Source: Acidimicrobiales bacterium (GTDB lineage Bacteria > Actinomycetota > Acidimicrobiia > Acidimicrobiales > CADCTF01). From it: a stretch of 51,373 bases of DNA. A program made the translations under genes and the position numbers. Shown here piece after piece: positions 23,305 to 47,808 of the stretch. The notes below the pieces were generated by a model. It was given only the letters and a program-made list of their open reading frames with translations. It did not search any database and had not been told where the DNA came from. Position 1 is the stretch's first letter. Each line of letters starts with the position of its first letter. The DNA lies in assembly GCA_046597375.1 (NCBI GenBank), contig JBKJKM010000168.1, positions 1 to 51,373 on the forward strand, written 5' to 3'.

Positions 23305-23333
23305 CAGTTCCCTTGGCGTCCTAACGTGGTCGG

Positions 23334-30964: not shown

Positions 30965-31017
30965 TTCATCGCACCACTTCGCGCCGACGTTGCCAGGTTG
31001 GTGATAGGCAGCGGGCC

Positions 31018-31832: not shown

Positions 31833-31922
31833 TTCTCCCCTCTTCACCATGCTGTGCGTCTGAATGTCTCGAACTCGTCCAAGTGCTTGAGCATCCGTCC
31901 GGAAGAGAGGATCGTTGGCCCC

Positions 31923-32783
31923 ATGATGTCTCCGGCATCGACCGATGGCAAGCACGTGCTCCCCGATGACCATCCCGGCTTCCACGACGCCGACTACCGC
32001 CGCCGACGAGCGGAGATCGGCCGGCTCGGTGCGGCCTACGTCGCCGGCGCCCCCATCCCCGACGTCCACTACACGGCCGCCGAGGACGAGGTCTGGCGCA
32101 CGGTCTCGACCGAGTTGGGGGCCAAGCACCGCCGCTTCGCCTGTCGCGAGTACCTCGATGGCGCGACCCGCTTGGTGCTGCCGACCGACCGGGTGCCACA
32201 GCTTCGCGAGGTCGACGCACACGTGCGCTCACTGACCGGGTTCGCCATCCGTCCGGTGCCGGGTCTCGTGCCGACGCGGCAGTTCTACGGCGCCCTCGCC
32301 GAGCGGGCCTTTCTGTCCACGCAGTACATCCGTCACCACTCGACGCCGCTCTACACACCCGAGCCCGACATCGTCCACGAGATCGTCGGGCACGCCAACT
32401 CGCTGGCCGACGATCGCCTCGCCGACCTCTACGAGTCGGCCGGGAAGGCATCGCTGCGGGCCGAGACCGAGGAGTCGCTGGCCTTCTTCAGCGGCGTGTT
32501 CTGGTTCACGCTCGAGTTCGGTGTCGTGTTCGAGGACGCCGAGCTGAAGACGTACGGCGCCGGCCTGCTCTCGTCGTTCGGCGAGATCGAGGCCTTCCGT
32601 GACGCCGACGTCCGGCCGTGGGACCTCGCCGCCATGGGCACCCTCGCCTACGACATCACGCAGTACCAGCCGGTGCTCTTTGCGGCCCCTTCGTTCGCGG
32701 CACTTGCCGACGACCTGGGGGCCTTCTTCGAGGACTTCGACGCCGACTCCCCCGCCCGCCTTCTCTCCGGAGCTCATCGATGA
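31923..32783 (+). CDS. phhA: Phenylalanine 4-hydroxylase (pterin-dependent aromatic amino acid hydroxylase)
   Basis: 286 aa. Iron-ligand region PEPDIVHEIVGHANSL, FWFTLEFG, YGAGLLSSFGE. The ATG at 31923 is preferred because the listed 31776 start overlaps the divergent regulator. Confidence 0.9.
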   Translation: MMSPASTDGKHVLPDDHPGFHDADYRRRRAEIGRLGAAYVAGAPIPDVHYTAAEDEVWRTVSTELGAKHRRFACREYLDGATRLVLPTDRVPQLREVDAHVRSLTGFAIRPVPGLVPTRQFYGALAERAFLSTQYIRHHSTPLYTPEPDIVHEIVGHANSLADDRLADLYESAGKASLRAETEESLAFFSGVFWFTLEFGVVFEDAELKTYGAGLLSSFGEIEAFRDADVRPWDLAAMGTLAYDITQYQPVLFAAPSFAALADDLGAFFEDFDADSPARLLSGAHR

Positions 32784-33916: not shown

Positions 33917-35124
33917 TGGCCGCGGGAGGCGACTCGTGGGCGCCCATACCGGACGGGTCGGGCTTCACCCTGGCCGCCCTCCCCTACGGCATCGCAGGCC
34001 GCCTCGGTGGGCGGCCCCGGATGGTGGCGCGCATCGGCGACGCCGTGCTTGCCGTCGGTGACGTGCTCGGCGACGACCATGACCGCTCGGCCTTCGAGAC
34101 CGACTCGCTCAACGCCTTTCTCGCCCTCGGCCCGCAGAAGTGGGCCTCGGTGCGCGGCCGCATCACCGACCACCTCACCGATCCGACCAACGAACGGCCC
34201 CTCGATGCGATCGACGACGTCGAACTGCGCCTGCCCGTCGAGATCGGCGACTACGTCGACTTCTACTCCTCGATCGAGCACGCCACGAACCTCGGTCGGC
34301 TGTTCCGTCCCGGTGGGGAGCCGCTGCTGCCGAACTGGCGCCACCTGCCGGTCGGCTACCACGGGCGATCGGGCACCGTCGTCGTGACGGGCACGCCAGT
34401 GCGCCGTCCTGCGGGACTGATGCTCGATGGCGATCGAGTCGTGCGTCGCCCGACGGAGGCCCTTGACATCGAGATCGAGGTCGGGTTCGTCGTTGGCGAA
34501 GGCAATCCCGACGGCGCACCCATCGCGCCAGACGATGCCGCCCGCCACGTGTTCGGCGCCGTCCTCGTCAATGACTGGTCAGCGCGTGACATACAGGCGT
34601 TCGAGTATCAGCCACTCGGCCCATTCCTCGGCAAGTCCTTCCTCACAAGCATCTCGGCGTGGGTCGTGCCCCTCTCCGCCCTCGAGCCATTCCTGATCGC
34701 CCCGCCGGCGCAGGCGCCCGAGCCCGACGTCGCGCTGCGAGCATCACAGCCATGGGCCCTCGATCTCGATCTGGCCGTCGAGCTGAATGGCTCGACCATC
34801 TCGCAGACCTCGTTTCGCCACCTCTACTGGACCTTCGCCCAGCAGCTCGCTCATCTCACCTCCAACGGCAGCACCACCCGTGCGGGCGACCTCTTCGCCT
34901 CGGGCACCGTGTCCGGCCCGGGACCCACCGAACTGGGCAGCCTCATAGAACTGACGCAGCGAGGCGCCAGTCCGGTCACCCTGGCCGACGGCCGTGAGCG
35001 CTCGTGGCTCGACGACGGCGATACCGTCGTGCTGCGCGGGTCGTGCGGGCAGGGTGCGGACAAGGTGGGCTTCGGCGAGGTCGTCGGCACGGTCGTCGCC
35101 GCCACAACGAAGGGACAGTCATGA
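33916..35124 (+). CDS. fahA: Fumarylacetoacetase
   Basis: 402 aa. The start shares one base with the hppD stop. Motifs DYVDFYSS, HLPVGYHGRSGT, GFVVG, NDWSARDIQAFEYQPLGPFLGKSF. Confidence 0.9.
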   Translation: MAAGGDSWAPIPDGSGFTLAALPYGIAGRLGGRPRMVARIGDAVLAVGDVLGDDHDRSAFETDSLNAFLALGPQKWASVRGRITDHLTDPTNERPLDAIDDVELRLPVEIGDYVDFYSSIEHATNLGRLFRPGGEPLLPNWRHLPVGYHGRSGTVVVTGTPVRRPAGLMLDGDRVVRRPTEALDIEIEVGFVVGEGNPDGAPIAPDDAARHVFGAVLVNDWSARDIQAFEYQPLGPFLGKSFLTSISAWVVPLSALEPFLIAPPAQAPEPDVALRASQPWALDLDLAVELNGSTISQTSFRHLYWTFAQQLAHLTSNGSTTRAGDLFASGTVSGPGPTELGSLIELTQRGASPVTLADGRERSWLDDGDTVVLRGSCGQGADKVGFGEVVGTVVAATTKGQS

Positions 35125-36299
35125 CCTACTACCGAAGCGTCGGTGACGTGCCCCGCAAGCGCCACACCGTCGCCCGTGACGCAGGCGGAGAGCGCCTCTT
35201 CGAGGAGCTCATGGGCGCCGACGGGTTCTCGGGACCGTCGTCGCTGCTCTACCACCGGCGTTCGCCGAGCGCGCTGCTCGCCGTCGAGGACGTGGCAGAC
35301 GACCGGGCCAAACTGCGGAGCAACCATCCGGTCGCGCCACTTCACCTACGGTCGGGCGAGGTCGAGGTCGGCAACGACGCTGTGACCGGACGCGTCGTGC
35401 TCCTGGCCAACGACGAGGTGTCGCTCGCGGTCGCCGGCGGACTGCGATCGAGTCCGCTGTTTCGCGACGCCGTCGGCGACGAGCTCGTCTTCGTCCATCG
35501 GGGCGCAGCTCGGCTCGAGTCCGTGTTCGGCATTCTCGACGTGACCGCCGGCGACTACGTCGTCATACCGACCTCGACGACGCATCGTTGGGTGCCGGAC
35601 GGCGGCGGCGAGCTGCGACTGCTCGTGGTTTCCTCCGTCGGGCACATCCGCCCACCCCGCCGTTACCTGTCGACAACGGGCCAGCTGCTCGAACATGCGC
35701 CGTACTGCGAGCGCGACCTGCGCGCACCAACCGGGCCGCTCGTCGTCGACGCCGCCGAGCTCGACGAACCGATCGACGTCCTGGTGCGAACGCATTGCGG
35801 GATGTCGCGTCACCGCCACGCCACCCACCCCCTCGACGTCGTCGGTTGGGACGGCAGCCTCTACCCCTACGCCCTCTCCATCCACGACTTCGAGCCGATC
35901 GTCGGCAGCATCCATCAGCCGCCGCCGGTACATCAGACCTTCGAGGGCCCGGGCTTCGTGGTGTGTTCGTTCGTGCCCCGGCCGCTCGACTTCCACGCTG
36001 ATGCCGTGAAGGTGCCCTATCACCACGCCAATGTCGACTCAGACGAGGTGCTGTTCTACGCCGACGGCAGCTTCTTGAGTCGCGCCGGAAGCGGGATCGG
36101 CGTGGCCTCGATGACGGTGCACCCCGCCGGCTTCGTGCACGGCCCCCAACCCGGCAGCTGGGAACGTTCCGTCGGCGCCACCCGCACCGAGGAGTTGGCC
36201 GTCATGATCGACACCTTCCGCCCGCTCCGTCTTTCGGCGCCCGCCGACGCCGTCACCGCCGGCGACTACCTCACGTCCTGGTCGCGCCACCCCTCCTGA
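35121..36299 (+). CDS. hmgA: Homogentisate 1,2-dioxygenase (short, roughly 390-aa cupin type)
   Basis: 392 aa. ATGA overlap with fahA. N-terminus MTYYRSVGDVPRKRHT, PYHHANVDSDEVLFY. Its position in the pathway cluster supports the call. Confidence 0.75.
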   Translation: MTYYRSVGDVPRKRHTVARDAGGERLFEELMGADGFSGPSSLLYHRRSPSALLAVEDVADDRAKLRSNHPVAPLHLRSGEVEVGNDAVTGRVVLLANDEVSLAVAGGLRSSPLFRDAVGDELVFVHRGAARLESVFGILDVTAGDYVVIPTSTTHRWVPDGGGELRLLVVSSVGHIRPPRRYLSTTGQLLEHAPYCERDLRAPTGPLVVDAAELDEPIDVLVRTHCGMSRHRHATHPLDVVGWDGSLYPYALSIHDFEPIVGSIHQPPPVHQTFEGPGFVVCSFVPRPLDFHADAVKVPYHHANVDSDEVLFYADGSFLSRAGSGIGVASMTVHPAGFVHGPQPGSWERSVGATRTEELAVMIDTFRPLRLSAPADAVTAGDYLTSWSRHPS

Positions 36300-36386: not shown

Positions 36387-37550
36387 TTACGTAGGGGTGT
36401 TGGCGCCACTCCTCGGGTCGATGATGACCTTGGCGTGGGTCTCAGGGTTCGCGAGGGCGTCGAAGGCGTTGGCGACACCTGCGAGGCCGACGGTGCCGGT
36501 GATGATGGCCGACGCATCGATCTTCCCGTCGGCGAGGAGGTGGAGGGTGTCACGGAACTCGAGTGGCCCGTAGCCAACCACGAAACGAAGGTCGATCTCC
36601 TTGTTGATCGCCATGACGGGCCGGAACCGGTCGGGTTCCATGCAGACGCCGGCGACGACGACCCTGGTGCCAAGGGGCGCATCGGTGATGATGCCGTCGA
36701 TGATGCCGGGGACGCCGACGCACTCGAACACGATCGGCCGCTTGGGTGCCGTCGCGCCGAGCTTGTCGAGCGCGCCGATCACGATGTGCCAAGGGATGGG
36801 GAGTTTCTGGAGGCCCTTCATCGCTTTAAGTCCTCCGGCCGCTCCTTGGGCGATGGAGGTGGTGTAGCCGCGATCACCGAGTGCCTCGTAGGGCGATTCG
36901 GCAGCGGGGTCGACGACCACGGTGGCGCCGCACGCGGTGGCGAGCGCGCGCCGGCCTGCGGAGTAGTCGCTGGCGACGATGGTCTCGATGCCTTTGGTCT
37001 TGAGCAGGCAGATGATGGCGAGCCCCACGGGCCCGCAGCCGATGACGACCGCGGCGTCCTTCTTGGTGATCTGGCTTCGGTTGACGGCGTGGTGGCCGAT
37101 GGCCAGAGGTTCGGTGATGACGGCGATGTCGGGGGCCAGGCCGTTGGGGACGGGCATGGTGAACGCCTCCTCGACGAGCACCCGTTCCGCGTAGGCCCCG
37201 GGGGCGGAGGCCGAGAGACCGATGGCGTGCATGCCGTTGGGCATCTTTACGAGCGGGAGTGCCACGACCGGCGTGCCTGCCTTGAGCTTCTTCGACGCAC
37301 CGGGCCCGTGGTCGGCGACGGTGCCGCAGAACTCGTGACCGAACACGACCTGCTCATGGGCGCGAGCGAACCCGTCGTAACCCGCTTCGGCCAGCACGTC
37401 GGCCTGGGCGTCGGCGTGGTGGCGGGCGTGGAGATCCGAGCCGCAGATCCCGCAGCCCGTGACGTCGAGGACGAGTTGGCCCGGACCAGGAGTGGGGTCG
37501 ACCAAGTCGACGACTTCGAGTTGTCCGTTCTCGCAGGCGACGGCCCTCAT
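36387..37550 (-). CDS. Zinc-dependent medium-chain alcohol dehydrogenase family protein
   Basis: 387 aa from the ATG at 37550 (ATGA overlap with the upstream gene). Motifs CGICGSDLH, GHEFCGTV, and Rossmann fold VIGCGPVGL. Confidence 0.85.
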   Translation of the reverse strand: MRAVACENGQLEVVDLVDPTPGPGQLVLDVTGCGICGSDLHARHHADAQADVLAEAGYDGFARAHEQVVFGHEFCGTVADHGPGASKKLKAGTPVVALPLVKMPNGMHAIGLSASAPGAYAERVLVEEAFTMPVPNGLAPDIAVITEPLAIGHHAVNRSQITKKDAAVVIGCGPVGLAIICLLKTKGIETIVASDYSAGRRALATACGATVVVDPAAESPYEALGDRGYTTSIAQGAAGGLKAMKGLQKLPIPWHIVIGALDKLGATAPKRPIVFECVGVPGIIDGIITDAPLGTRVVVAGVCMEPDRFRPVMAINKEIDLRFVVGYGPLEFRDTLHLLADGKIDASAIITGTVGLAGVANAFDALANPETHAKVIIDPRSGANTPT

Positions 37551-38173
37551 GACGGCAGCATCGAGTCGTCGAAGTCGGGCAGCGGCTTGATGAAGGGGTC
37601 GAGGAGCTTCCGGCTTTGATCGACGGTCAGGACGTCCGCAGGATCGAGCTTGAACAGACCAGCCTCTGCGGTGTCGAACTCCCACACGTCCTCACCGAGC
37701 AACCGGCCGCGATCGTCGTAGGGCCACAGCATCATGATCTGGGACTTCTTCAGATACATCGCGCCGGGATCGACATCGAGCCCAGCGGCCGCCAGCTCCG
37801 AGCCCAGTGTTTGCTGGTAGCCGATGCCGCGGCCGACCACCATGTGGTCGCCGACGGCGACGTCCTCGTCCGAGACGTAGAAGACGCACTGGTTGGTGTT
37901 GGTCCAGTGGCCGTAGAGCATGCCAACCTGGTCCTTGCCCGTCAGGGTGAACGGCTCACGCCCCGCCACGTTGAACCGGTAGTGCGGTTCGTCGACGGTG
38001 AGGTCGGGGTCGAGGATCTCTTCCCACCGACCCGCTGACTCCAGGTAGCGGTGTCGGAGGTAGGCCTCGAGGAGGTAGCGGTGCCGTCGGTTGGTGGTGT
38101 GTTCGAGCACCTTCTCGACCGCCTCGTTCTGGCGGGTGATGTCGAGGCGGCTCATGTCGATCTCTGATGCCAT
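37547..38173 (-). CDS. Hypothetical protein, 208 aa, function unknown (translationally coupled to the ADH)
   Basis: GC3-rich ORF with an ATG start. I recognise no motif. The repeated-aromatic pattern may indicate an NTF2-like fold, but this is a guess. Confidence 0.6.
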   Translation of the reverse strand: MASEIDMSRLDITRQNEAVEKVLEHTTNRRHRYLLEAYLRHRYLESAGRWEEILDPDLTVDEPHYRFNVAGREPFTLTGKDQVGMLYGHWTNTNQCVFYVSDEDVAVGDHMVVGRGIGYQQTLGSELAAAGLDVDPGAMYLKKSQIMMLWPYDDRGRLLGEDVWEFDTAEAGLFKLDPADVLTVDQSRKLLDPFIKPLPDFDDSMLPS

Positions 38174-38193
38174 CCCTTTATTATATGCATGGT

Positions 38194-38206
38194 CAACAGC
38201 TTGTTG
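38194..38206. promoter_or_regulatory. Short inverted repeat CAACAgctTGTTG in the AT-rich divergent intergenic region (candidate TetR site)
   Basis: Read directly. It lies in the lowest-GC stretch of this neighbourhood (ctttattatatgcatgg...). Confidence 0.25.
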
Positions 38207-38238
38207 CTAGATCGGTCAGTAACAGCAATGGTGTGCGG

Positions 38239-38865
38239 ATGGCACGCGCAGCAGAACCCACGACGAAGCCGGACGGGTCTGCGAGGCGGCGGCTGGCCGT
38301 TGAAGATCGACGGTCGGAGCTGATGGCGGCGTGTCTGCACCTCATCGGGACGCGGTCGTGGGACGAGGTCACCATGGCGGACGTGGCCGAGGCCGCCGGT
38401 GCATCGAAGCCGCTGCTGTACCACTACTTCTCGACCAAGACCGACCTCTACGTCGCCACCGTCCGTTGGGCCGCCGACCAACTCGGCGGGGCCACACGAC
38501 CCGATCCGGCCTTGCCCCAACCGGCGCGCCTGCACCAGGCGTTGCGCGCGCACTTGGACTGGATCGACGACAACGCCGACACCTATCGCGCCGTTCTCCA
38601 CGGCGGAATGAGCGGGCATCCCGACGTGCGCAGAATCGTCGAAGAATCACGCTGCGATGTCGCCCACCGCCTCGCCGAAGGCTTCGGACTCGCAAGCCCG
38701 ACCCCAGCCCAACGCATCGCTCTCCGGGGCTGGGTCGGCTTCCTCGACGCCGCCTGCGTCGACTGGCTGATGAGCCGAGACATCTCGAAGGCGGACCTCG
38801 TGCGCCTCCTCGCCTCGTCCCTCACGCAAGGGCCGCTACGCGCGGCCGCTGCGGCCGCCGGGTAG
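38239..38865 (+). CDS. TetR-family transcriptional regulator
   Basis: HTH region LMAACLHLIGTRSWDEVTMADVAEAAGASKPLLYHYFSTK. The start is the ATG at 38239 (a GTG at 38233 is also possible). Confidence 0.85.
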   Translation: MARAAEPTTKPDGSARRRLAVEDRRSELMAACLHLIGTRSWDEVTMADVAEAAGASKPLLYHYFSTKTDLYVATVRWAADQLGGATRPDPALPQPARLHQALRAHLDWIDDNADTYRAVLHGGMSGHPDVRRIVEESRCDVAHRLAEGFGLASPTPAQRIALRGWVGFLDAACVDWLMSRDISKADLVRLLASSLTQGPLRAAAAAAG

Positions 38866-38929
38866 CGAAGCCACCGCTGCGGTTCGGGTGTTGTCGCAGG
38901 TGAGCTGGCGCACGTCTTGCTACCTGTTG

Positions 38930-39202
38930 TTACGGCGAACCACCTGTTATCACCTCTTCCTTGATTTCCTGATTGGATTTGTCGCCGCTCAGATCTGACG
39001 ATGGTGACGGGACCGGATCCGAGACCCCGACCATCTCGGCGGGGTCGCCCGTGATGATCTCGATGGCGCCCCAATCCGTTACGACAGCGACCGTTGCGCC
39101 GATGTGGGTGCCGCCCGCACCAGCGGCGCAGAACTCGTCGCCCACTACTCGATCCCAACCGCCGCCCACCCCGACGCACACCGTGGAGCGAGCGCACCGC
39201 AA
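38930..39202 (-). CDS. Possible small ORF or decayed gene fragment (90 aa), unknown function
   Basis: The frame is GC3-rich (GGGWDRVVGDEFCAAGAGGTHIGATVAVVTDWGAIEIITGDP). A second coding-like frame continues upstream (39200-39330: ELLDGEGGVSSWVRRLQAMLSDPGEDLRW), which suggests a frameshifted remnant. Confidence 0.3.
   Translation of the reverse strand: MRCARSTVCVGVGGGWDRVVGDEFCAAGAGGTHIGATVAVVTDWGAIEIITGDPAEMVGVSDPVPSPSSDLSGDKSNQEIKEEVITGGSP
38981..39003 (+). repeat. Left copy of an imperfect direct repeat (gtcgccgctcagatctgacgatg)
   Basis: Matches 44197-44220 at all positions apart from a single-T indel. Weaker similarity extends about 20 nt to the left of both copies. Confidence 0.6.
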
Positions 39203-39330
39203 CGAACAAGCCCGCTACTGACCACCTCAGGTCCTCACCGGGATCGGACAACATCGCCTGCAGGCGCCTCACCCAGCTCGACACGCCGCCCTCGCCGTCC
39301 AACAGCTCGACGTTAGGGGTCCCCCAGCGG

Positions 39331-39963
39331 TCAGCCGAGCACCCTGGCGGCGTGCGCAGCGGCCAGGGTGACGGCCACGATGATAAGGGCGACGTAGGAG
39401 CGCCCCGTCAGTTTCGGGATGCGCAAGGGGCTGACCATGAGCCCGGCCAACACGGCGCCGCCGACGCCGAGGGCAACTCGAAGGTCCGAGGGCCGGAGCG
39501 GCCCGTCGAGGAGCATCAACGCCACGAAGGAGATGATGGCCAGGTCCGTCGGCAGGCCGGTGTAGGTGCCCGAGGCTTCGTCGAGACCGTGGACGTTGAA
39601 GTAGCTGAGGCGAAGGGCGGTGGCCATGGCGAGCAGCACGGCCACGGTGACGTATGCCAACTGGAAGCGGCCATACGACACGATCACGACGCCGAGCGCA
39701 GCCCCTGCCGAGACCATGTCCGCCAGAGAATCCATGTTCGCCCCGAACGCACCTTGCTCGGCCGTGCGCCCCGACGTCCGTTTGGCCACCGGGCCGTCGA
39801 CCACATCGAATACGAAGCTCCCGACCAGGCAGATGGCGGCTTCCGCAAATTGGCCCCGGACGGCAAGCGTGATCGCCAAGACGCTCGTTGCCAGCCCGGT
39901 GAGCGTGAGCAGATTTGCCGCGTCGACGACGTGGGACAGGATCGGTGAAGGCGGCGAACCCAC
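39331..39963 (-). CDS. CDP-alcohol phosphatidyltransferase-family membrane protein
   Basis: About 210 aa from the GTG at 39963. The upstream gene stops at 39996, so the listed 40566 start is an artefact. Family motif DVVDGPVAKRTSGRTAEQGAFGANMDSLAD (DxxDGxxAK...GxxxDxxxD). Multiple hydrophobic helices. Confidence 0.8.
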   Translation of the reverse strand: MGSPPSPILSHVVDAANLLTLTGLATSVLAITLAVRGQFAEAAICLVGSFVFDVVDGPVAKRTSGRTAEQGAFGANMDSLADMVSAGAALGVVIVSYGRFQLAYVTVAVLLAMATALRLSYFNVHGLDEASGTYTGLPTDLAIISFVALMLLDGPLRPSDLRVALGVGGAVLAGLMVSPLRIPKLTGRSYVALIIVAVTLAAAHAARVLG

Positions 39964-39995
39964 TTCGCCGCCCGGGACGGGGGTCGGCGAGGCGC

Positions 39996-41885
39996 TCAGG
40001 ACCGGTCCAGCCCGAGTTGCGAGAGGGCGTCGACGAGGCGCCGGTTCTCCGGCGCAGTGCGCGACGCGATGCGGAGGTAGACCTCTGCGTCGGGCATCGT
40101 CTTCGACGCGCAGTCCTTGATCAGGATGCCGTGTTCGACGTACATCCTCCTTGCGAGCGCCGGCCCCGTGATGCCGGGTGTGGTGATCTTGCAAAACACG
40201 AAGTTCGCGTCGGGCCGAATCGGGGCCAGGCCTGGCAACTCGCAGAGTGCGACATAGAGGTCCTGGCACGTGTCGCGCACCACCTCGCAGCTGGCTGCGA
40301 ACTCGCTGCGGTAGCGGCCCACCCGTCGCAAGAACGACTCCGCCAAACCGTTGAGGTTCCAGATGGGGAGCTGGGCACGGACGGCCCCGGCGAATGCGTG
40401 GTCGCCGGTGAGGAGGTAGCCGAGACGAAGGCCGGCGACGCCGAACACCTTGCTCATGCTCTTGATGACGACCAGGTTCGCATGGTCGGCGACGTCGCCC
40501 TCGACGCTCGCCGTCCGGCCGGCGCGGGAGAACTCGATGAACGATTCGTCCACGATCAGCCGGCACTCATGCGTTGCGAGGCGACGCGCCAGCTCGAGGA
40601 TCTCCCCACGCCCCACGGAGAGCGCCGTCGGGTTGTTCGGTGTCACGAGGACGGCTGCGTTGGATCCGGCTCGCCGGGCCGACTCGGCGAACGCATCGAG
40701 GTCGAGATCAAAGGTGGCCGGATCGAGAGCGACGCGGTCGAGCTGTTCCGGGCGCAACACGTTTTCGTACTCGTTGAAGGAGGGGACGGAGATCGTCATC
40801 TTGTCGATGAAGGACTGGCCCAGCACCTTGATCAGCTGCGCCGCCCCGTTGCTGACGACCATCCCGGCCGGGTCGGTCCCCGTCCACTGGGCGGTGAGGC
40901 GGTCGAGCTCGATCTGGCCGACCGGGTAGTTGGTGATGATGTCGAGGAGCTCCTGGCGAAACCCGTCGAGCATGGCCTGTGGAGGGAAGTGCAGGTTGTA
41001 AAGGTAGGAGTGGTCGACGACGCCGTACCGCCAATGTGACCCGTGGAGAGTCTGTATCCGGTCAAATTGGCGGTCGCGGCTGAGGAACATGAACTCGGCG
41101 ATCTCGAGGTCGCGGGGATCATCGAGCTCGTACCAACGACTGCTCGAGACATCAACGGCGACAAGGTCTGGAAACGAGCCATCGGCCACCAGGTCTCGAA
41201 ACACCGTCTCGTAATAGGCGTAGACGTTGCCGAGCTCCACTTGCCGACACAACTCGGGAACGATCAGGCCGCGGAGAACCTCGGCCCGGAGTAGGTAGAT
41301 GTTGACCGTCTTGTGCAGGTCGACTCCGCCGAGGCCGCCGCCCAGATCCGCACCCAGGATGAACGACGTGACGAGCCCATTGTCGTCACGACGCACGACC
41401 GTGCCCGAGAAGTCATCGTTGTCAGGGGCCACGGCCATGCTGCTCCCGGCCTGTTCGCACAGGCGCACCACGACGTCTCTGTCGAAGACCACATCGCCCT
41501 CGAGCAGGAGGATGTCCTCGTCGCAGTACAAACGGGCATCCCAAAGCGAGCGAAGGTTGTTGGTCGACTCGTACGACGGAGCGTCGACGTAGACCATGTC
41601 GATGCCCTCGAATCTGGCCCCGACCCTCCGGCGGACTTGGGCCGCTTCGTGTCCGACAACGACGACGGCTTCGGTCACCCCTGCGGAAGCCAGCACCCGC
41701 AGGGCACGAAAGAGAATCGGCACACCGTTCACCTCGACGAGGCACTTGGGCACGTCGGTCGTGAAGGGCAGCATGCGGCTTCCGACCCCAGCGGCGAGGA
41801 TGACGGCGCGGCGCACGGGGTGTGGCCTGTGCGCGTCGGCCTGCGTGACCGGCTCGGTCGCGTCATCATTCACCGTCTGAGTCAC
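39996..41885 (-). CDS. Fusion protein: LicC-like sugar/alcohol-phosphate nucleotidyl(cytidylyl)transferase domain plus class I/II PLP-dependent enzyme domain (HisC/CobD-like)
   Basis: N-terminal half: AVILAAGVGSRMLPFTTDVPKCLVEVNG...YESTNNLRSLW...LLLEGDVVF. C-terminal half: VTPNNPTA, IVDESFIEF, and the PLP lysine in KSMSKVFGVAGLRLGY. The GTG at 41885 (after GGGGGG) is preferred over the listed TTG at 41981. Confidence 0.8.
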   Translation of the reverse strand: MTQTVNDDATEPVTQADAHRPHPVRRAVILAAGVGSRMLPFTTDVPKCLVEVNGVPILFRALRVLASAGVTEAVVVVGHEAAQVRRRVGARFEGIDMVYVDAPSYESTNNLRSLWDARLYCDEDILLLEGDVVFDRDVVVRLCEQAGSSMAVAPDNDDFSGTVVRRDDNGLVTSFILGADLGGGLGGVDLHKTVNIYLLRAEVLRGLIVPELCRQVELGNVYAYYETVFRDLVADGSFPDLVAVDVSSSRWYELDDPRDLEIAEFMFLSRDRQFDRIQTLHGSHWRYGVVDHSYLYNLHFPPQAMLDGFRQELLDIITNYPVGQIELDRLTAQWTGTDPAGMVVSNGAAQLIKVLGQSFIDKMTISVPSFNEYENVLRPEQLDRVALDPATFDLDLDAFAESARRAGSNAAVLVTPNNPTALSVGRGEILELARRLATHECRLIVDESFIEFSRAGRTASVEGDVADHANLVVIKSMSKVFGVAGLRLGYLLTGDHAFAGAVRAQLPIWNLNGLAESFLRRVGRYRSEFAASCEVVRDTCQDLYVALCELPGLAPIRPDANFVFCKITTPGITGPALARRMYVEHGILIKDCASKTMPDAEVYLRIASRTAPENRRLVDALSQLGLDRS

Positions 41886-42045
41886 GAGCCCCCCGGGCTG
41901 TCGATGGCACGACCTCGCCACCGATACACCGCCGAGGCAACGGAGAAGCGCTCCTGCGCCTATCTTACCGAAGCATGTCAATGCGACAGCGCTCCCTCTG
42001 CACGGAGTCGTCGTGAACGCAGACCGGTAGAACGGCTCGATTCGG

Positions 42046-42942
42046 ATGTCACGACGTCGGCGTGATGAGAACGGCCTTGACTACGAGGTGGTACGGACCT
42101 TTTGGGAAAACGCCGCCGACGAGGCGGCATCGGCTTCTTACATGGCGCACGAGCAGGGCCTGCCCAGGGATTGCCTAGAGCTTCGGTTTTCACTTGAGCG
42201 GGCGGTGGTCGAACGATGGTTTGCGGAACTGGGCCCCACGGCCTCGGTGCTCGATGTCGGGTGCGGCGCCGGCGCCTGGACAGAGCTGTTCGCAGGGCGA
42301 TACCAGCGCGTCGTGGGCGTGGACGCGAGTTCGGGCATGCTGGCCGCCGCTCGGCGGCGGCTGGCCGGGCAAGGCAACGTAGAACTGAAATTTGGGAACG
42401 CGCTGACCGTTCCCCTCGAAGGGGAGTTCCAGGGCGTTCTCGTCGGGGGGCTGTTGATGTACCTCAACCGAGCCGACGCTGTCGCACTGCTCGTCCGCCT
42501 TCGCGAACTCGCGCCCAAAGGTCGGATCATCCTTCGCGAATCGGGAGTTCGTTCCGGAACAGAGGTGCAAAACGGCCCGTACCAGGTGGTGTATCGATCG
42601 GTGCAGGAGTACGAAGCCATGGCACGTGAGGCCGCCCTGCGCGTCGTGACCGTCGAGCGGAACCGGGGCTACGCACAGATGGAGATCGCCGTCGTATTGG
42701 TGAACCTCCTTCGACGTGTGCCGCTCGTCGCACGGCGCGATGCGGCTGTCGTCGGTGGACCGCTGTGGCGTCTTCTGCGGGCCACCGCGCCCATCACCTT
42801 GGAGGCGCTGCCCCGAGCGATCGAGTCCGTTGGCCTCAACTGGCCGCACCTGACCAACCACTTCCTGCTTCTCGAACCCGTCCTCGCTGACAGCCCAACA
42901 GAGCGCCAGATGCTCGCTGACACCACCGCCCATGATCCGTAG
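42046..42942 (+). CDS. Class I SAM-dependent methyltransferase with a roughly 90-aa C-terminal extension
   Basis: 298 aa with an ATG start. Motif I VLDVGCGAGAWT, post-I VGVDAS, GLLMYL. It is divergent from the fusion gene. Confidence 0.8.
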   Translation: MSRRRRDENGLDYEVVRTFWENAADEAASASYMAHEQGLPRDCLELRFSLERAVVERWFAELGPTASVLDVGCGAGAWTELFAGRYQRVVGVDASSGMLAAARRRLAGQGNVELKFGNALTVPLEGEFQGVLVGGLLMYLNRADAVALLVRLRELAPKGRIILRESGVRSGTEVQNGPYQVVYRSVQEYEAMAREAALRVVTVERNRGYAQMEIAVVLVNLLRRVPLVARRDAAVVGGPLWRLLRATAPITLEALPRAIESVGLNWPHLTNHFLLLEPVLADSPTERQMLADTTAHDP

Positions 42943-42950
42943 AGCGATGC

Positions 42951-43151
42951 TCAGCCTTCTGTGACCTGCGGTCTCGTACGTTGTCGCGGGTCAGCGACCG
43001 CACGTATCTCGGCGAAGAACGCCACGTGTCCCGCTATAGGGGCGACGTGGGAGTGCGGGTCGTCGTAAACCAGACGTCGTCGAGTGGCCAGGTTGGCGGC
43101 GTCAACGAGCAGGTCGATACAGCCGACCTCCTCGCCGAATCGGTCGGCCAC
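42951..43151 (-). pseudogene. Possible C-terminal remnant of an alpha/beta-hydrolase-like gene
   Basis: 66-codon ORF ending ...LVYDDPHSHVAPIAGHVAFFAE... (resembles the catalytic-His end of the fold). An in-frame stop lies 15 codons upstream of the GTG. There is no room for a full-length enzyme. Confidence 0.3.
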
Positions 43152-43291
43152 CAGGCGCCATACGAAGCGTTTGGGGCGCCCGCTGTGCCGTCGTCACCAA
43201 CCCGGATCGGAAAGCCGTGGGATCATGAGCCCGTGATCCCGTCCGGCGCACGGCTGCACCGAATCGCCAATCGTCGAAGGAGCTTTACGCC

Positions 43292-43741
43292 ATGTCACCA
43301 GAAGAGCCCCACTCCCCGTCGCCGATCGTCAATCAGTTCGTCCGGTCGCTCGCGCGAGTTCTACCTGAGGAGGAGCGGGTCGGGCTTTCGGCGTTCGACT
43401 CCGCCGTTGCCGGAACGACGAGCGACGGCGACCTGCGCCGCGCCTGGCGCTGTGCGGAGTGGGCGCTCCAGCTCGCTGGTCATCCTGACGAATCGAAGGT
43501 CGACCGACTGGCCCATGAGATCCAGGGGGCGTACCGCCTGCTGAAGGACTCGATGTACGGTTTCGCGTTCGGGGCGGCGTTTCACGACGGTGTCGGGCCG
43601 GGAACCGACGTGCAGATCCAGTGGGTGGAGCGGGCGGTGGCCGTTGCCAAAGAAACCGGCGCCTCGCTCGGATGGGATGCCGTCCCCTGGCAGGCCCTGC
43701 TGGAGGAGCTCATCACGACGTCCTCAGTGGAGCGCGGGTAG
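43292..43741 (+). CDS. Hypothetical protein, 149 aa, helical, unknown function
   Basis: Strong RBS (GAAGGAG) 8 nt before the ATG. GC3-rich frame with no recognisable motif. Confidence 0.6.
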   Translation: MSPEEPHSPSPIVNQFVRSLARVLPEEERVGLSAFDSAVAGTTSDGDLRRAWRCAEWALQLAGHPDESKVDRLAHEIQGAYRLLKDSMYGFAFGAAFHDGVGPGTDVQIQWVERAVAVAKETGASLGWDAVPWQALLEELITTSSVERG

Positions 43742-43816
43742 GGACAACACCGGCTAGCACGTCGGATCTCGGAGGACCTGATGCACCCTCTCCGTCTGCC
43801 GTCCGCTGTGGGCGGT

Positions 43817-43858
43817 GGCTTGACCCGAAAGGGGACGTCGGTAGGGTGGGGTCAAGCC
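43817..43858. repeat. 10-bp perfect inverted repeat GGCTTGACCC ... GGGTCAAGCC with a 22-nt spacer, in non-coding DNA
   Basis: Read directly from the sequence. Confidence 0.7.
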
Positions 43859-44044
43859 ATCCACCTCGCCGCCCGACCCTTGCTTCGGCTCGGACGTCGG
43901 TACGGAGCCTCCGGAATTGTCGGCAGACTCCCGAGCATCGAACAGAGGGAGGACTGCCGATGTCTTTGTTGCCGTCGCATGCCAGCGAGCGTCTTCAGGA
44001 AGTTGCCTCGTGACGAAGCAGGGGCAACCTCCGCTTCTCTACCG

Positions 44045-44215
44045 ATGTCCAAGGCAACTCTCGACATTCCGCTCCGCGCCCTCTTTCGTGTCGACGTTCA
44101 GGGCCTTGAGCATGTTCCCGATGGACGAGGCGCAGAACGAGGCGCAGAACGAGGCGCAGGTTCGTGGCGGGACGGGTCTGGATTCCTGAAGAATTCGTCG
44201 CCGCTCAGATCTTGA
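44045..44215 (+). pseudogene. Possible N-terminal fragment of an acyltransferase-like gene
   Basis: MSKATLDIPLRALFRVDVQGLEHVPDG resembles the start of PlsC-type acyltransferases (compare RFGERLTVEGIEHVPAKG at 21909-22535). It then degenerates into a 12-bp tandem repeat and stops after 56 codons. Confidence 0.3.
44127..44159 (+). repeat. 12-bp tandem repeat gaggcgcagaac, about 2.75 copies
   Basis: Read directly from the sequence. Confidence 0.85.
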
Positions 44216-44463
44216 CGATGTCGAGCGCGCTGCCAAGGAACAGATCGTCCTCCTGCTGCAGCTGCAGAACTTCGACGCGGCGACGCCAGAGTGGCAGACA
44301 TTGCAGACCGCCCTCATTGAGTACGGCTACGGCGTCTTCATGGCGTGGACGAAGGCCGGCGTCGTCAGGAGGATGGCGTCGCAGCACGGCGGGGGCCGCG
44401 GCGTCTACGGCCTGGAGAAGGTCCCTGAGGCGTTCCGCCTCGAGCGGCCACCGTCGCCGTGGT
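44190..44463 (+). pseudogene. 5'-truncated coding remnant (91 codons, no start codon), unknown family
   Basis: Frame 0 between the stop at 44187-44189 and the TGA at 44461-44463 is strongly GC3-biased (DLDDVERAAKEQIVLLLQLQNFDAATPEWQTLQTALIEYGYGVFMAWTKAGVV...). It has no ATG/GTG/TTG near its 5' end. Confidence 0.4.
44197..44220 (+). repeat. Right copy of the imperfect direct repeat (gtcgccgctcagatcttgacgatg)
   Basis: See the left copy at 38981-39003. Confidence 0.6.
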
Positions 44464-44577
44464 GAACCCGCGCTTCGTGACCTGGATGCGCTTGCCTGTC
44501 AACGGGTCGCGCCCGACCGTCGCCTTGAAGTACCACGAGCCGTTTCCAGCCCGGTAGACGCCCTCTACATTGGGCAT
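44365..44577 (-). pseudogene. Tyrosine-recombinase (phage-type integrase) N-terminal fragment
   Basis: An ATG at 44577 with a GGAGG RBS gives MPNVEGVYRAGNGSWYFKATVGRDPLTGKRIQVTKRGF, the arm-binding N-terminus typical of actinobacterial integrases. After about 38 aa the frame becomes the antisense of the neighbouring remnant and stops at 71 aa. It lies 121 nt from the 3' end of tRNA-Arg. Confidence 0.55.
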
Positions 44578-44961: not shown

Positions 44962-47808
44962 CTACTCCGTCACCTCGAGGCGGTGCTTCGGTTCCTCGTC
45001 GGCTGGGTGAATCCTCGCTGATCCCTCTGCGCCGAATCGAACGACGTAGGCCGACGCCAGCTCGGCCTTCGACCGAACATCGAGCTTGTCGAACACATGT
45101 GCAACGTGGGTCTCCACGGTGCGGCGCGACACATAGAGGCGTTCGCCGATGACGCGGTAGGTGAGTCCGCGCGAGACCAGTTCGGCGACTCGTAGCTCGG
45201 ACTTGGTGAGGCTCCCCCAACCAGTCAGCGGACGAGGCGACGGTGGGGTCTTGCGCGACAACCCCGCCTCACGCAGGCGACGCGCGAGGCGCATGAGATC
45301 GCGTTGGCCGCCCAGGGCTTCGTAGACCGAGGTCGCACTGTCGAAGAGTTGTTGCGCCTGCGTCTCGTCTGAACGTACGAACGCGGCGGCGGCGTCTTCG
45401 TCGGCGCGCGCAGCCTCCACCGGCCGACCGAACCGTCGATACAACGCCGCAGCTTCGAGCAGGTCTGCACCTGCGCCCTCGATCAAGGCGAGGCAGTGCT
45501 TGGCGACGGCTACTGCGATGTCGCCGCCTCGTGGTACCAGGGCTTGCACGACGGATGCGACCTCCCGCCCCAGCGGATCGTCACCGGACAGGACTGCGTG
45601 GCGAACGAGGTCGGCGGCGTAGAGCTTTTGCCACACACGGACCCCCGCTTGGTCGTCCTTCCGCCAGGCCTCGGCGAGCAGTTGGCGGCCCTTGTCCAGA
45701 TCGCCTTCGACCTCGGCGGTCACCGACGCCACCCAGGTACCGAGCCCCGCCGACGATGCCATGGTCCGGCTGTGCACTAGCCATTCCCGCGCAGCATCCA
45801 GCCGTCCGCGTTCCGCCTCGATCAGCGCCGCGACCCCGAACAGGCTGTCCGAGATGCGCGGACCTGACTCCTCGGTGCGGCAGCGCGAGGTCTCGAACTG
45901 AGCCAGGGCTTCGTCCCACTCGCCGGCCAACCAGTAGGCGAAGCCCGCGCCGGCGTCGATCTCTGGGAAGGCATGCGATGCAGCGGAACCGATGCGGTGC
46001 AGCGATTGTCGCCACCCTGCGTCGCTGCCGTCGCTTCCGAGGACCAGGGTGGCCCCGTCCATCGACTGGGGTGGAAGGCCGACGTCCTTGGTCAACTCCT
46101 CCCAACGGTGGGCAATCGCCGGCCCTGCCTCGTTCTCGCCCCGCGACCACGCGACGAGCCCCCGGCAGACGGAGAGCCAAAAGTCGACGATTCCGTGCGT
46201 GTCGTCAGGATCTTGCGCGTAGTGGGCCAGGACTTGCGCTTCGTCCTGTTCGTCGCCGGCGACGAAGCTCAGGAGACCGTCAGTCACGCGCTCTGCGGTG
46301 TCGGGATCGCCGAGGAGGCACCGGGCCCCGACGATGGCGACGGCCATCGCAATCTGGATACTGCGTGGTCGCGGCGTCGCGAACGCGACACGCTCCGCTT
46401 CATTGACATCGCCGGCGAGCGCTCGGCCAGTCACCAGCGCCTCCTCCGTCACCCACCGAAGCAGGTTGGGCAAGGGCTCGCGCAGCATGGCATGGGCACG
46501 ATCGAGTCGCGCACTTCCGGGTTGGGCGGCACCGTAGGTCGCCACCAGGACGCGACGCTCCAGGAGGCTCTCGTGGTTAGGGGGCGTCAGCGCGACCGAC
46601 CGCTCCCGCAACTCGAGACTCGTGCTCCGGTCGAGTGCATAGGTCGCGATCGCCGCCCTCCACAGCCAGTCCGACGCGACCGCGTCCGGTCCGTCGACAC
46701 CGAGTTCGAAGTGCCGCGCCACGCGCGTGACGTCCGCGGTCGGTTCCGCTGCAAGAATTGCTCCGGCGTCGGTGTGAAGCACTCGCCGGTGCGGCTCGGG
46801 GGTGTCAGCGTAGGCAGCCTCGTGGATGAGGTCGTGGCGAAAGCGGAATCCATCGGATGTGGCGATCACGACGCCGCCGTCTATCGCAGGCTGGAGCAGC
46901 GGCATCAGCTCCAGAGCCGGGCGACGCGCCACTGCGGTGAGCTCGCCCAGAACGAACGACGCCCCGAGTATGGCGGCGGTGCGGAGGAGCTCGATCGTCT
47001 CGGACGGAAGCAGCCCGAGCCTGTGCACGATGGTCAAGGGAAGGGACGGGGGCGCCGACGAGTCCGGCACGTCAGCTATGCCGTTCGCTCGAGTGAGATC
47101 GCTGCCCAGCCCCTCGACGAACTCGGTGACGTAGAGCGGGTTGCCCGACGCACCCCGGACGCGGGCCGACAGCGCGGGCCCAAGCCGCGCGTCCACGAGC
47201 TCCTCGACGATCTCCTCCACGGCGGCATCGGGGAGCGGGCCGAGCCGTATCTCCACTCCTCCCTCATCAGCGAGCGATCTGAGCAACGCCTCGAGGTTGG
47301 ACGAACGGGGTGACAGTCGCCGGGTGCAGAGCAGGGACGTGTTGAGCGGGCCACGCTGCCGCGCAAGACGGCCCAGAAGCGACAAGGTCGCCGCGTCGGC
47401 CCAGTGGATGTCTTCGAGGACGAACACCACGGGGCCCTCAGCGCTCGCGCGCTCGAACAGGTCGAGGAAGTGGTCGGCGACGGCGAACTGGCGGGTCGAG
47501 TCCAGGCTCGCAAGCTCTTCGTCTGGCGACCTGACAATCGACGGCACCAGCTCATGGCTCCGCACCTCGAACGCGTCGAGCAACGGACCGAACGGACGCT
47601 CGCGCTCGAGCTCACACGCTTTGCCGACCAACACCCGAAGACCGGTGGCGACATAGGTGGCTGTCTCGACCAGGCGCGACTTTCCGATGCCTGCTTCACC
47701 CTCGACGATGACCGCAAATGGCGTGCCGGCGGTGGCGCCCTCCAAGGCCGCCGTGAGCTGACCCAACTCGGACGTCCGCCCACGGAAGCCAACCCGTCGC
47801 GACCGCAC
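44962..47808 (-). CDS. Large ATP-binding LuxR-family regulator (LAL/MalT-like: P-loop NTPase plus helical repeats plus C-terminal LuxR HTH)
   Basis: 948 aa with a GTG start. Walker A GEAGIGKSRL, Walker B VFVLEDIHWAD. LuxR HTH: LTKSELRVAELVSRGLTYRVIGERLYVSRRTVETHVAHVFDKL. Confidence 0.85.
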   Translation of the reverse strand: MRSRRVGFRGRTSELGQLTAALEGATAGTPFAVIVEGEAGIGKSRLVETATYVATGLRVLVGKACELERERPFGPLLDAFEVRSHELVPSIVRSPDEELASLDSTRQFAVADHFLDLFERASAEGPVVFVLEDIHWADAATLSLLGRLARQRGPLNTSLLCTRRLSPRSSNLEALLRSLADEGGVEIRLGPLPDAAVEEIVEELVDARLGPALSARVRGASGNPLYVTEFVEGLGSDLTRANGIADVPDSSAPPSLPLTIVHRLGLLPSETIELLRTAAILGASFVLGELTAVARRPALELMPLLQPAIDGGVVIATSDGFRFRHDLIHEAAYADTPEPHRRVLHTDAGAILAAEPTADVTRVARHFELGVDGPDAVASDWLWRAAIATYALDRSTSLELRERSVALTPPNHESLLERRVLVATYGAAQPGSARLDRAHAMLREPLPNLLRWVTEEALVTGRALAGDVNEAERVAFATPRPRSIQIAMAVAIVGARCLLGDPDTAERVTDGLLSFVAGDEQDEAQVLAHYAQDPDDTHGIVDFWLSVCRGLVAWSRGENEAGPAIAHRWEELTKDVGLPPQSMDGATLVLGSDGSDAGWRQSLHRIGSAASHAFPEIDAGAGFAYWLAGEWDEALAQFETSRCRTEESGPRISDSLFGVAALIEAERGRLDAAREWLVHSRTMASSAGLGTWVASVTAEVEGDLDKGRQLLAEAWRKDDQAGVRVWQKLYAADLVRHAVLSGDDPLGREVASVVQALVPRGGDIAVAVAKHCLALIEGAGADLLEAAALYRRFGRPVEAARADEDAAAAFVRSDETQAQQLFDSATSVYEALGGQRDLMRLARRLREAGLSRKTPPSPRPLTGWGSLTKSELRVAELVSRGLTYRVIGERLYVSRRTVETHVAHVFDKLDVRSKAELASAYVVRFGAEGSARIHPADEEPKHRLEVTE

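Follow-up and report, generated by a model that had tools for sequence, protein, structure and literature searches.

The 51,373-nucleotide contig JBKJKM010000168.1 of an Acidimicrobiales bacterium (assembly GCA_046597375.1), here called the window, carries a cassette of three genes within positions 39331-42942. These encode a fusion protein, which joins a nucleotidyltransferase to a pyridoxal phosphate (PLP) domain; a small CDP (cytidine diphosphate)-alcohol phosphotransferase; and an S-adenosylmethionine (SAM)-dependent methyltransferase. We think it likely that the fusion protein makes a CDP-amino-alcohol donor for the adjacent transferase, a proposal first made in a preliminary description of this DNA and now strongly backed by comparative genomics. 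The cassette is most likely a self-contained module for the synthesis and attachment of a phospho-amino-alcohol head group. The full explanation that we favour, with ethanolamine as the head group, N-methylation, and diacylglycerol as the acceptor, stands at somewhat better than even; confidence is lower for each of these details than for the explanation as a whole.

Homologues of the fusion protein number more than 1100 among the scored candidates, mostly in Acidimicrobiia-like metagenome bins, and form 461 clusters at 50% identity (E<=1e-30). Most of the top matches are about 600 residues long, with both domains aligned. The best 80 of 300 confirmed loci were surveyed, from a scan that used one genome per species. 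These loci show only two kinds of neighbourhood, never mixed: type A (34 loci) and type B (46 loci). Type A consists of the fusion and CDP-alcohol phosphotransferase genes, together with the methyltransferase gene in all but one locus having room for it. The transferase gene lies directly downstream of the fusion gene at every type A locus having room. The hosts are Acidimicrobiia-type Actinomycetota, where the methyltransferase gene is divergent and upstream, and three Dehalococcoidia (L075, L079, and L080), where it is convergent and downstream of the transferase gene. The gene-neighbourhood survey that the preliminary description proposed thus finds the three genes conserved together: all are present at 28 type A loci, and the six others, truncated or partial, reach contig ends except for L077, in which the fusion is disrupted. 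The same trio occurs on a further metagenome contig (L082) at 44/39/42% identity. The trio, carried by many uncultured Actinomycetota and Chloroflexota, spans at least two phyla, two gene orders, and unrelated flanks, and is not a chance neighbourhood.

Type B consists of an aspartate-aminotransferase-like gene, then the fusion gene, then a LicD-family gene whose product has a carboxypeptidase-regulatory-like (CarboxypepD_reg-like) carboxyl-terminal domain; there is no methyltransferase gene. Its hosts are Tepidiformaceae and other Dehalococcoidia, Gammaproteobacteria, Myxococcota, Limisphaerales, Acidobacteria, and some Acidimicrobiia including a Microthrix bin. (Type B loci lie within L026-L074; examples are L040:4599-8766, L039:4775-8830, and L052:1835-5948.) Across bins of Dehalococcoidia, Gammaproteobacteria, Myxococcota, Limisphaerales, and Acidimicrobiia, this cassette keeps 66-87% identity, a pattern suggestive of horizontal spread. 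Its probable role is the de novo decoration of glycans with a phospho-amino alcohol. In a neighbour-joining tree of 76 fusion proteins, every type B protein falls in one clade. The class-specific positions that separate the two types number only nine, each with a conservative difference, and conservation reaches at least 95% in both types at 154 of 629 positions. These nine differences give no sign of a difference in substrate, and the two types of fusion therefore probably make the same product. The preliminary description regarded the three-gene arrangement as unfamiliar. Indeed, no account of a fusion, transferase, and methyltransferase cassette was found in the literature; the arrangement is nevertheless widespread and has a sister cassette with LicD.

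Forty long loci, 19 of them type A, were used to analyse the surroundings. Nothing else is conserved in the 6-kb flanks of the cassettes, and in particular no conserved kinase, phosphatase, or diacylglycerol-related accessory gene is found there. The TetR gene and the open reading frames (ORFs) of 208 and 149 residues beside the window cassette have no counterpart at any other locus.

More distant relatives broaden the range of partners. The pair of fusion and transferase genes recurs at 36% (L083) and 34% (L085) identity to the window fusion. Distant nucleotidyltransferase-PLP-methyltransferase fusions account for five cluster representatives, and other distant fusions involve LicD (P0468), a GNAT acetyltransferase (P0373), or a GT4 glycosyltransferase (P0366). 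The triple fusion P0487 (854 residues; L081:6001-8565) is encoded between two TagF-like Glyphos_transf genes, near genes for glycosyltransferases, an Asp/Glu racemase, and flagellin. The fusion therefore has partners from three transferase families with no structural kinship, namely CDP-alcohol phosphotransferases, LicD, and TagF-like enzymes. The last two draw on CDP-alcohols as donors, and the first can work with either a CDP-alcohol or CDP-diacylglycerol. CDP-alcohols, as a donor class, are all that these families have in common, and a CDP-alcohol donor is thus the most likely product of the fusion. The fusion family marks at least three kinds of phosphodiester-decoration system, one for each transferase family, which should aid genome annotation.

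Two of the distant loci have distinctive surroundings. At L083 (4233-10689), the fusion and CDP-alcohol phosphotransferase genes are followed by genes for a HAD hydrolase, an ATP-grasp ligase, and an MFS transporter, and preceded by an Antibiotic_NAT gene. This unit lies on an apparent mobile element (integrase, ParB, and helix-turn-helix genes) and may be a small-molecule or resistance-related cluster. At L084 (2148-8977), a fusion with 29% identity to that of the window lies beside genes for Iso_dh, a succinate-dehydrogenase-like flavoprotein, and Formyl_trans_N, a context reminiscent of FR-900098-type (frb) phosphonate clusters; no phosphoenolpyruvate (PEP) mutase was seen in the 9 kb at this locus.

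The two domains of the fusion are readily identified. In the 661-residue maximal ORF, Pfam places NTP_transf_3/NTP_transferase (MobA-like) at residues 59-207 and Aminotran_1_2 at residues 353-653. The translation contains all the motifs quoted in the preliminary description: ILAAGVGSRM, PKCLVEV, NNLRSLW, NNPT, DESFIEF, and SMSKVFGVAGLRLGY. The amino-terminal domain has the G-loop LAAGxGxR and the PK lysine, K47. In an alignment of 14 diverse fusion homologues of 60-100% identity (alignment A1), residues L30-R37, P46, and K47 are invariant, as are PLP-domain residues N418 (PNNPT), D446 (DESF), K479 (SKVFG), R487, R605, and R609. A search of the Protein Data Bank (PDB) with the nucleotidyltransferase domain placed a MurU-type nucleotidyltransferase (4Y7T) first, ahead of LicC (1JYK, E 2.4e-9) and the PntC-aminotransferase fusion PntC-AEPT (6PD1, E 5.8e-9). 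With its LicC-like fold and signature, and with LicC and PntC among its best solved relatives, the domain is assigned to the LicC/PntC type, and we infer from the sequence that its nucleotide is cytidine triphosphate (CTP).

The best NCBIfam match of the PLP domain is CobD (TIGR01140), at 167.4 bits against an equivalog cut-off of 290.55; HisC (TIGR01141) scores lower, at 123.9 bits against a cut-off of 276.55. The PDB gave the same order: 6OUX, a 'threonine phosphate decarboxylase-like enzyme' (114 bits); CobD 1LC5 (91 bits); two structural-genomics entries; and then true HisC at about 56 bits. We take 6OUX to be SMUL_1544 of Sulfurospirillum multivorans, an L-serine O-phosphate decarboxylase of norcobamide synthesis. 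In the literature, SMUL_1544 governs norcobamide biosynthesis. The Lys, Asp, Asn, and Arg residues that bind PLP are common to SMUL_1544, Salmonella CobD, and the window domain. However, SMUL_1544 and CobD are stand-alone enzymes that feed the cobamide nucleotide loop, whereas the window domain is fused and falls well under the CobD cut-off. The sequence places the domain nearer to CobD-type phospho-amino-acid decarboxylases than to HisC, and predicts a decarboxylase of a phospho-amino acid (or CDP-amino acid). A role in histidine biosynthesis was ruled out by the HisC scores, which lie under those of the decarboxylases, and by the unsuitable fusion and context. The preliminary description had named clustering with HisC, without co-conservation of the genes elsewhere, as an argument against its model; here the domain is nearer to CobD and the genes are conserved together. 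It had also offered decarboxylation and transamination alike for the PLP step, and the scores favour the former.

The closest characterised relative is FrbH, an important addition that the preliminary description lacked. FrbH, from FR-900098 biosynthesis in Streptomyces rubellomurinus, comprises a PF12804 cytidylyltransferase and a PLP decarboxylase (PMC6697681, PMC8007912). It converts CTP and L-2-amino-4-phosphonobutyrate to CMP (cytidine monophosphate)-3-aminopropylphosphonate (PMC6697681; PMC8007912). Cytidylylation comes first, followed by decarboxylation of the CMP conjugate, and the subsequent pathway steps also act on CMP conjugates (PMC6697681, PMC8007912). The FrbH K38A substitution, equivalent to fusion residue K47, abolishes cytidylyl transfer (PMC6697681). 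In architecture the window fusion is of the FrbH type: a PF12804 domain precedes a class I/II PLP domain in a single chain of about 600 residues. (A FrbH lysine is cited at position 573, so that protein has at least about 575 residues.) Both FrbH-type catalytic lysines, that of the PK motif (K47) and that of the PLP Schiff base (K479), are invariant in alignment A1. By chemical reasoning, 2-amino-4-phosphonobutyrate is the methylene (C-P) isostere of O-phospho-L-serine, and CMP-3-aminopropylphosphonate is an isostere of CDP-ethanolamine. Thus, each system would make a nucleotide-linked amino compound from an α-amino acid with a terminal phosphate or phosphonate, with tailoring on the conjugate. 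They differ in that FrbH, encoded in a natural-product cluster with PEP mutase, acts on a phosphonate, and hydrolysis releases what it makes; the window cassette has no phosphonate genes, and its conjugate is proposed to pass to a phosphotransferase. A PepM-linked phosphonate pathway in the style of FrbH or PntC was considered and rejected: no PEP-mutase or frb-like gene is present in the flanks of the 40 long loci. Nor is there one among the 33 window ORFs that were scanned (27 high-GC3 calls plus the methyltransferase, the transferase, TetR, a LuxR-type gene, a zinc-ADH-like gene at 36387-37685, and the ORF at 37547-38173).

These comparisons suggest a pathway. The substrate of the fusion would be a primary-metabolite O-phospho-amino acid, most likely O-phospho-L-serine. 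The LicC-type domain would activate it with CTP, the CobD-type domain would decarboxylate it, and the product would be a CDP-amino-alcohol, for which CDP-ethanolamine is the likeliest candidate. The FrbH precedent makes CTP plus phosphoserine to CDP-serine to CDP-ethanolamine the probable order, so that the order assumed in the preliminary description, with the PLP step first, may have to be reversed. The latter order, through free phosphoethanolamine and with CobD and SMUL_1544 as precedents, would end in the same product. The small membrane transferase would then move the phospho-amino-alcohol from CMP to a membrane alcohol, for which diacylglycerol is the simplest candidate, and the methyltransferase would add one to three N-methyl groups to the amine, whether this is still part of the CDP conjugate or already part of the transferred head group. 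The resulting lipid would be phosphatidylethanolamine itself or an N-methylated form of it, with phosphatidylcholine as the fully methylated extreme. Phosphoserine as the precursor of CDP-ethanolamine is favoured because the FrbH substrate is isosteric with it; because the cassettes lack both phosphonate genes and, in either type, a kinase or phosphotransferase able to supply phosphothreonine; and because phosphoserine is a universal metabolic intermediate.

The donor and acceptor logic is that of the Kennedy pathway, of LicC/LicD, and of the Treponema CDP-choline route: a CDP-amino-alcohol donor meets an alcohol acceptor. Moreover, the LicC-type nucleotidyltransferase fold and the CDP-alcohol phosphotransferase signature are shared. 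These pathways start, however, from free ethanolamine or choline and a kinase. The cassette has no kinase, and its fused decarboxylase implies de novo supply from a phospho-amino acid.

Several points weigh against this proposal, touching in turn its acceptor, its transferase, its amino alcohol, and its methylation step. With respect to the acceptor, the pair at L085 lies inside a glycan-synthesis cluster (with glycosyltransferase, sugar aminotransferase, and flippase genes), which leaves room for an acceptor other than diacylglycerol. The same donor chemistry could instead serve a glycolipid, a lipoglycan, a polyprenol-linked glycan, or a soluble phosphodiester like that made by DIPP synthase, an alternative that is unlikely but retains an appreciable chance. 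Besides L085, it draws on the sister cassette, whose LicD belongs to a typically glycan-modifying family, and on small six-helix CDP-alcohol phosphotransferases such as DIPPS, which use soluble acceptors. Archaeal IPCT-DIPPS likewise couples a cytidylyltransferase to a small CDP-alcohol phosphotransferase, and gives weak profile and fold matches; it differs in using inositol phosphate, in making a soluble product, in lacking a PLP domain, and in fusing the two activities that the cassette encodes in separate genes. On the other side, no glycan genes are conserved in the 6-kb flanks of the 19 long type A loci; the nearest structural relative of the transferase acts on a glycerolipid; and the occurrence of a working three-gene cassette in unrelated genomes points to an acceptor that is universal.

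The transferase step is the weakest link. The protein matches PF01066 (E 8.7e-12; 46 bits, cut-off 22) and so belongs to the CDP-alcohol phosphotransferase family. Its sequence DVVDGPVAKR...GANMDSLAD yields the signature D53xxD56G57xxA60-K61-R62...G74xxxD78xxxD82, in which D53, D56, G57, A60, G74, D78, and D82 are invariant among its homologues (alignment A3). However, in sequence and in predicted fold, it is nearest to CDP-diacylglycerol:serine phosphatidyltransferases, not to CDP-choline/ethanolamine:diacylglycerol phosphotransferases. The nearest solved structure by sequence is Methanocaldococcus jannaschii phosphatidylserine synthase (PSS; 7POW, 38.6 bits). The AlphaFold model (predicted local distance difference test score, pLDDT, 86; about six long helices) best matches 7B1K/7POW (PSS) in Foldseek, at template-modelling (TM) scores of 0.70-0.75 and 21-23% identity. 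The PssA-type motifs RLSYFN (RL..F) and GLP are present. No CHPT1 or CEPT1 structure is among the listed Foldseek (E<=10) or phmmer matches, and the closest sequence and fold are not those of Kennedy-type choline- or ethanolaminephosphotransferases (CPT/EPT), which have ten helices where this minimal enzyme has about six. A CPT/EPT-like mechanism may nonetheless operate despite the PssA-like sequence and fold. A PSS-like fold, here a predicted one, cannot by itself discriminate the polarity of the donor, and a PssA-like scaffold could carry out an identical phosphodiester exchange in which head group and diacylglycerol trade places.

Accordingly, a conventional alternative has to be weighed: the transferase may be a CDP-diacylglycerol-dependent, PssA-like synthase of phosphatidylserine or a related lipid, with the fusion supplying free alcohol or being unrelated. 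This is distinctly unlikely. Its best family matches are indeed PssA and archaetidylserine synthase, and Joint Genome Institute (JGI) pipelines label its homologues phosphatidylserine synthase, but neither NCBIfam cut-off is reached: pssA (TIGR00473) scores 80.3 bits against 107, and archaetidylserine synthase (NF038087) 89 bits against 240. The canonical Arg of DGxxAR is Lys in the window transferase and Lys or Ala in its family, and an invariant Arg (R62) follows one residue later. A conventional synthase would leave an invariant, catalytically intact cytidylyltransferase domain without a role, and would not account for the same fusion being paired with LicD and TagF-like transferases, which take CDP-alcohol donors. 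Moreover, the cassette has no phosphatidylserine decarboxylase gene, and none lies beside the transferase gene at the surveyed loci. The preliminary description had held that a grouping with PssA or PgsA enzymes would argue against its model. That grouping is found in part, with PssA and PSS, but we do not take it as a refutation: the scores lie under the cut-offs and the signature is altered; the transferase is always and strictly coupled to an enzyme predicted to form a CDP-amino-alcohol, whose cytidylyltransferase domain would otherwise be pointless; and at other loci it is LicD and TagF-like enzymes that this same fusion supplies.

For the amino alcohol, the proposed identity is drawn from analogy and from what the cassette lacks, and FrbH itself is likened to the fusion by architecture and published descriptions. 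In addition, the extra aminotransferase of type B has no explained role if phosphoserine is freely available. (One speculation is that it makes phosphoserine from 3-phosphohydroxypyruvate, in an isosteric version of the transamination upstream of FrbH.) The amino alcohol may instead be (R)-1-amino-2-propanol, formed from O-phospho-L-threonine as in the CobD reaction, or 3-aminopropanol, from O-phosphohomoserine. The best NCBIfam family of the PLP domain is after all a threonine-phosphate decarboxylase, CobD, with CobD 1LC5 second in the PDB search, and the HAD-family genes beside the pair at L083 and L086 are possible FtaA-like phosphotransferases. We nevertheless consider an aminopropanol improbable: neither cassette type has a kinase or FtaA/ThrH-like gene to provide phosphothreonine; the best PDB match, 6OUX, is taken here as a serine-phosphate decarboxylase; and it is phosphoserine, rather than phosphothreonine or phosphohomoserine, whose isostere FrbH uses. 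It is very improbable that the PLP domain is a HisC- or Cj1437-like aminotransferase, converting for example dihydroxyacetone phosphate to serinol phosphate that is then cytidylylated, for although it belongs to the HisC/CobD fold family and matches TIGR01141 at 124 bits, decarboxylase profiles and structures consistently score above HisC, the sole characterised enzyme of this architecture is a decarboxylase, and type B already has a separate aminotransferase-like gene, which fits a sequence of aminotransferase and then decarboxylase.

As to methylation, sequence, profile, and structure comparisons point to no particular substrate for the methyltransferase. The Pfam Methyltransf_25/11/12 match covers residues 66-167 of the 298-residue protein, and its homologues share a conserved amino-terminal motif, LDY..VR.YW..A....SASYMAH (alignment A2). 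The AlphaFold model is good (pLDDT 86.7), yet Foldseek returns generic class I small-molecule methyltransferases at TM about 0.5, among them TleD, RebM/AtmM, PfPMT, AtPMT, and cyclopropane fatty acid synthase, so that structure is uninformative as a guide to substrate. The phosphoethanolamine methyltransferases (PMT/PEAMT) supply four of the top ten PDB sequence matches, at a weak 28-33 bits. No PmtA model is among the 25 best of 37 NCBIfam matches, of which the best, CpaM (49.5 bits), is far under its cut-off. The preliminary description noted an extra carboxyl-terminal segment. The extra segment is real and conserved in the family, but it is a helical insertion (residues about 207-261) before the last β-strand (270-278) of the Rossmann sheet in the model, not a separate tail; only the last 20 or so residues are unconserved. 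The insertion might be a lid or a membrane-facing element. (The public gene call P0121, of 266 residues, drops the amino-terminal motif that is invariant in homologues; on sequence grounds the 298-residue start suits the family better.)

The proposal that we favour leaves two places for N-methylation. Methylation of the conjugate would resemble the action of FtaC of Clostridioides difficile, which has been shown to N-methylate CDP-threonine ahead of the step catalysed by the phosphotransferase FtaD (bioRxiv 10.64898/2026.02.12.704994; PMC11833859); methylation of the transferred head group would resemble that of PmtA. Because the two types of fusion probably make the same product and type B lacks a methyltransferase, methylation should follow the reactions of the fusion. 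The window enzyme has a homologue in the methyltransferase domain of P0487 (32% identity over 149 residues, E 1e-16), although that domain lacks the helical insertion. A homologous domain fused to a soluble enzyme, together with the FtaC precedent, favours the CDP conjugate. The preliminary description had the final product methylated, and this is only one option; the evidence points at least equally to the conjugate.

The FtaABCD and PA1088-PA1091 systems, which modify flagellin glycans in C. difficile and Pseudomonas aeruginosa, follow a similar course: a phospho-amino compound becomes a CDP conjugate, is N-methylated, and passes to a phosphotransferase. They differ from the window cassette in several ways: FtaB lacks a PLP domain, threonine retains its carboxylate, a TagF-like enzyme performs the transfer, and a sugar linked to protein serves as acceptor. 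FtaC, moreover, is described as a minimal class I methyltransferase, whereas the window enzyme has extra amino-terminal and inserted helices. L081, with its nucleotidyltransferase-PLP-methyltransferase fusion, TagF-like genes, and nearby flagellin gene, resembles the Fta systems. By analogy with C. difficile FtaABCD, it likely specifies modification of flagellin glycans with a phospho-(N-methyl)amino-alcohol.

Each part of the cassette belongs to an established family, and the proposed chemistry has its models in the Kennedy, FrbH, and Fta systems. Public pipelines name the products 'aminotransferase class I/II-fold enzyme', 'phosphatidylserine synthase', and 'SAM-dependent methyltransferase'. 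In the accepted view of bacteria, phosphatidylethanolamine is derived from phosphatidylserine, and phosphatidylcholine comes from lipid methylation, choline condensation, or scavenging. Cultured Acidimicrobiia such as Ilumatobacter and Aquihabitans may contain phosphatidylcholine; the literature search gave no confirmation of this, and the argument makes no use of it. No publication was found that treats CDP-serine as a metabolite or describes de novo synthesis of CDP-ethanolamine by bacteria. If true, the proposed pathway would be a new entry point to Kennedy-type chemistry, in which the head group is built on the nucleotide from phosphoserine; and it would be a compact, horizontally mobile three-gene module for Kennedy-like lipid head groups, as yet undescribed in bacteria. 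It would also explain head-group synthesis in abundant uncultured Acidimicrobiia and Dehalococcoidia of soil, peat, and sea; suggest an origin for the antibiotic enzyme FrbH; and extend the theme of CDP-linked amino compounds, exemplified by CDP-threonine, from flagellin glycans to membranes. The most far-reaching version combines every step: CDP-serine, CDP-ethanolamine, N-methylation at the nucleotide level, and a PssA-derived transferase with reversed substrate polarity would constitute a bacterial route to phosphatidylcholine or N-methylated phosphatidylethanolamines that is independent of choline and of phosphatidylethanolamine, with the sister cassette serving de novo phosphoethanolamine decoration of glycans. 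This combination is distinctly unlikely as a whole; were the nucleotide-level route true, CDP-serine would be a new metabolite.

Taken as a whole, the interpretation in the preliminary description is partly supported, and its gene layout holds throughout: Pfam and the coordinates agree on a two-domain fusion of about 630 residues; on a PF01066 transferase that starts (GTG at 39963) after a 32-nucleotide gap from the fusion stop codon, on the same strand; and on a methyltransferase gene on the opposite strand, divergent and upstream, 160 nucleotides from the fusion start. The maximal fusion ORF runs from a TTG (39996..41981, minus strand). Homologues and the public gene call P0001 support the GTG start given in the table below, just 5' of which is a G-rich run resembling a Shine-Dalgarno sequence.

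Features of the cassette in the window, with the support for each
Feature	Position	Strand	Support
Class I SAM-dependent methyltransferase, 298 aa	42046..42942	+	Pfam Methyltransf_25/11/12
Divergent intergenic region, 160 nt, between methyltransferase and fusion genes	41886..42045	.	Sequence read; Rfam negative
Whole bifunctional fusion gene, 629 aa, GTG start at 41885	39996..41885	-	>1100 homologues, mostly full length
Fusion amino-terminal LicC/PntC/FrbH-type nucleotidyltransferase, predicted cytidylyltransferase, aa ~24-270	41076..41816	-	PF12804/PF00483
Fusion carboxyl-terminal CobD/SMUL_1544-type PLP domain, aa ~300-629 plus stop codon	39996..40988	-	PF00155
CDP-alcohol phosphotransferase, PssA-like subfamily, 210 aa, P0241	39331..39963	-	PF01066

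The divergent intergenic region presumably holds promoters for both genes. A riboswitch or other RNA there was ruled out: Rfam gave no riboswitch or RNA family at 38000-44500 (E<=1), bar one chance small nucleolar RNA match elsewhere.

The window DNA is high in G+C (about 0.64-0.70). The two ORFs that flank the cassette, of 208 (37547-38173) and 149 (43292-43741) residues, have no Pfam match; nor, at E<=1e-5, does a minus-strand ORF of 682 residues (49133-51181), which has a coding-like third-position G+C content (GC3) of 0.84. Two very large regulators of the signal-transduction ATPase type are encoded at 27485-31054 and 44962-47808. One comprises an adenylate/guanylate cyclase and AAA_16 (1189 residues); the other, about 2 kb from the methyltransferase gene, comprises AAA_16 and LuxR/GerE (948 residues). 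Neither is kept beside the cassette at other loci.

About 17 kb from the cassette, two glycerolipid-type acyltransferase genes lie on either side of a gene for an MftR-like TetR regulator (21909-24758). One product is PlsC-like (208 residues) and the other is a fusion of HAD and acyltransferase domains (474 residues). A gene for an AMP-binding acyl-activating enzyme is found at 20462-21907. An apparent cluster for aromatic amino-acid catabolism occupies 31776-36299. It begins with a biopterin-dependent hydroxylase gene, confirmed by Pfam (31776-32783), and the ORFs that follow are candidates, by translation only, for 4-hydroxyphenylpyruvate dioxygenase, fumarylacetoacetase, and homogentisate dioxygenase. 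Finally, a gene for a stand-alone LigD primase-polymerase domain, of the non-homologous end-joining type (7955-8998), adjoins a pair of ABC exporter genes (4059-7879).

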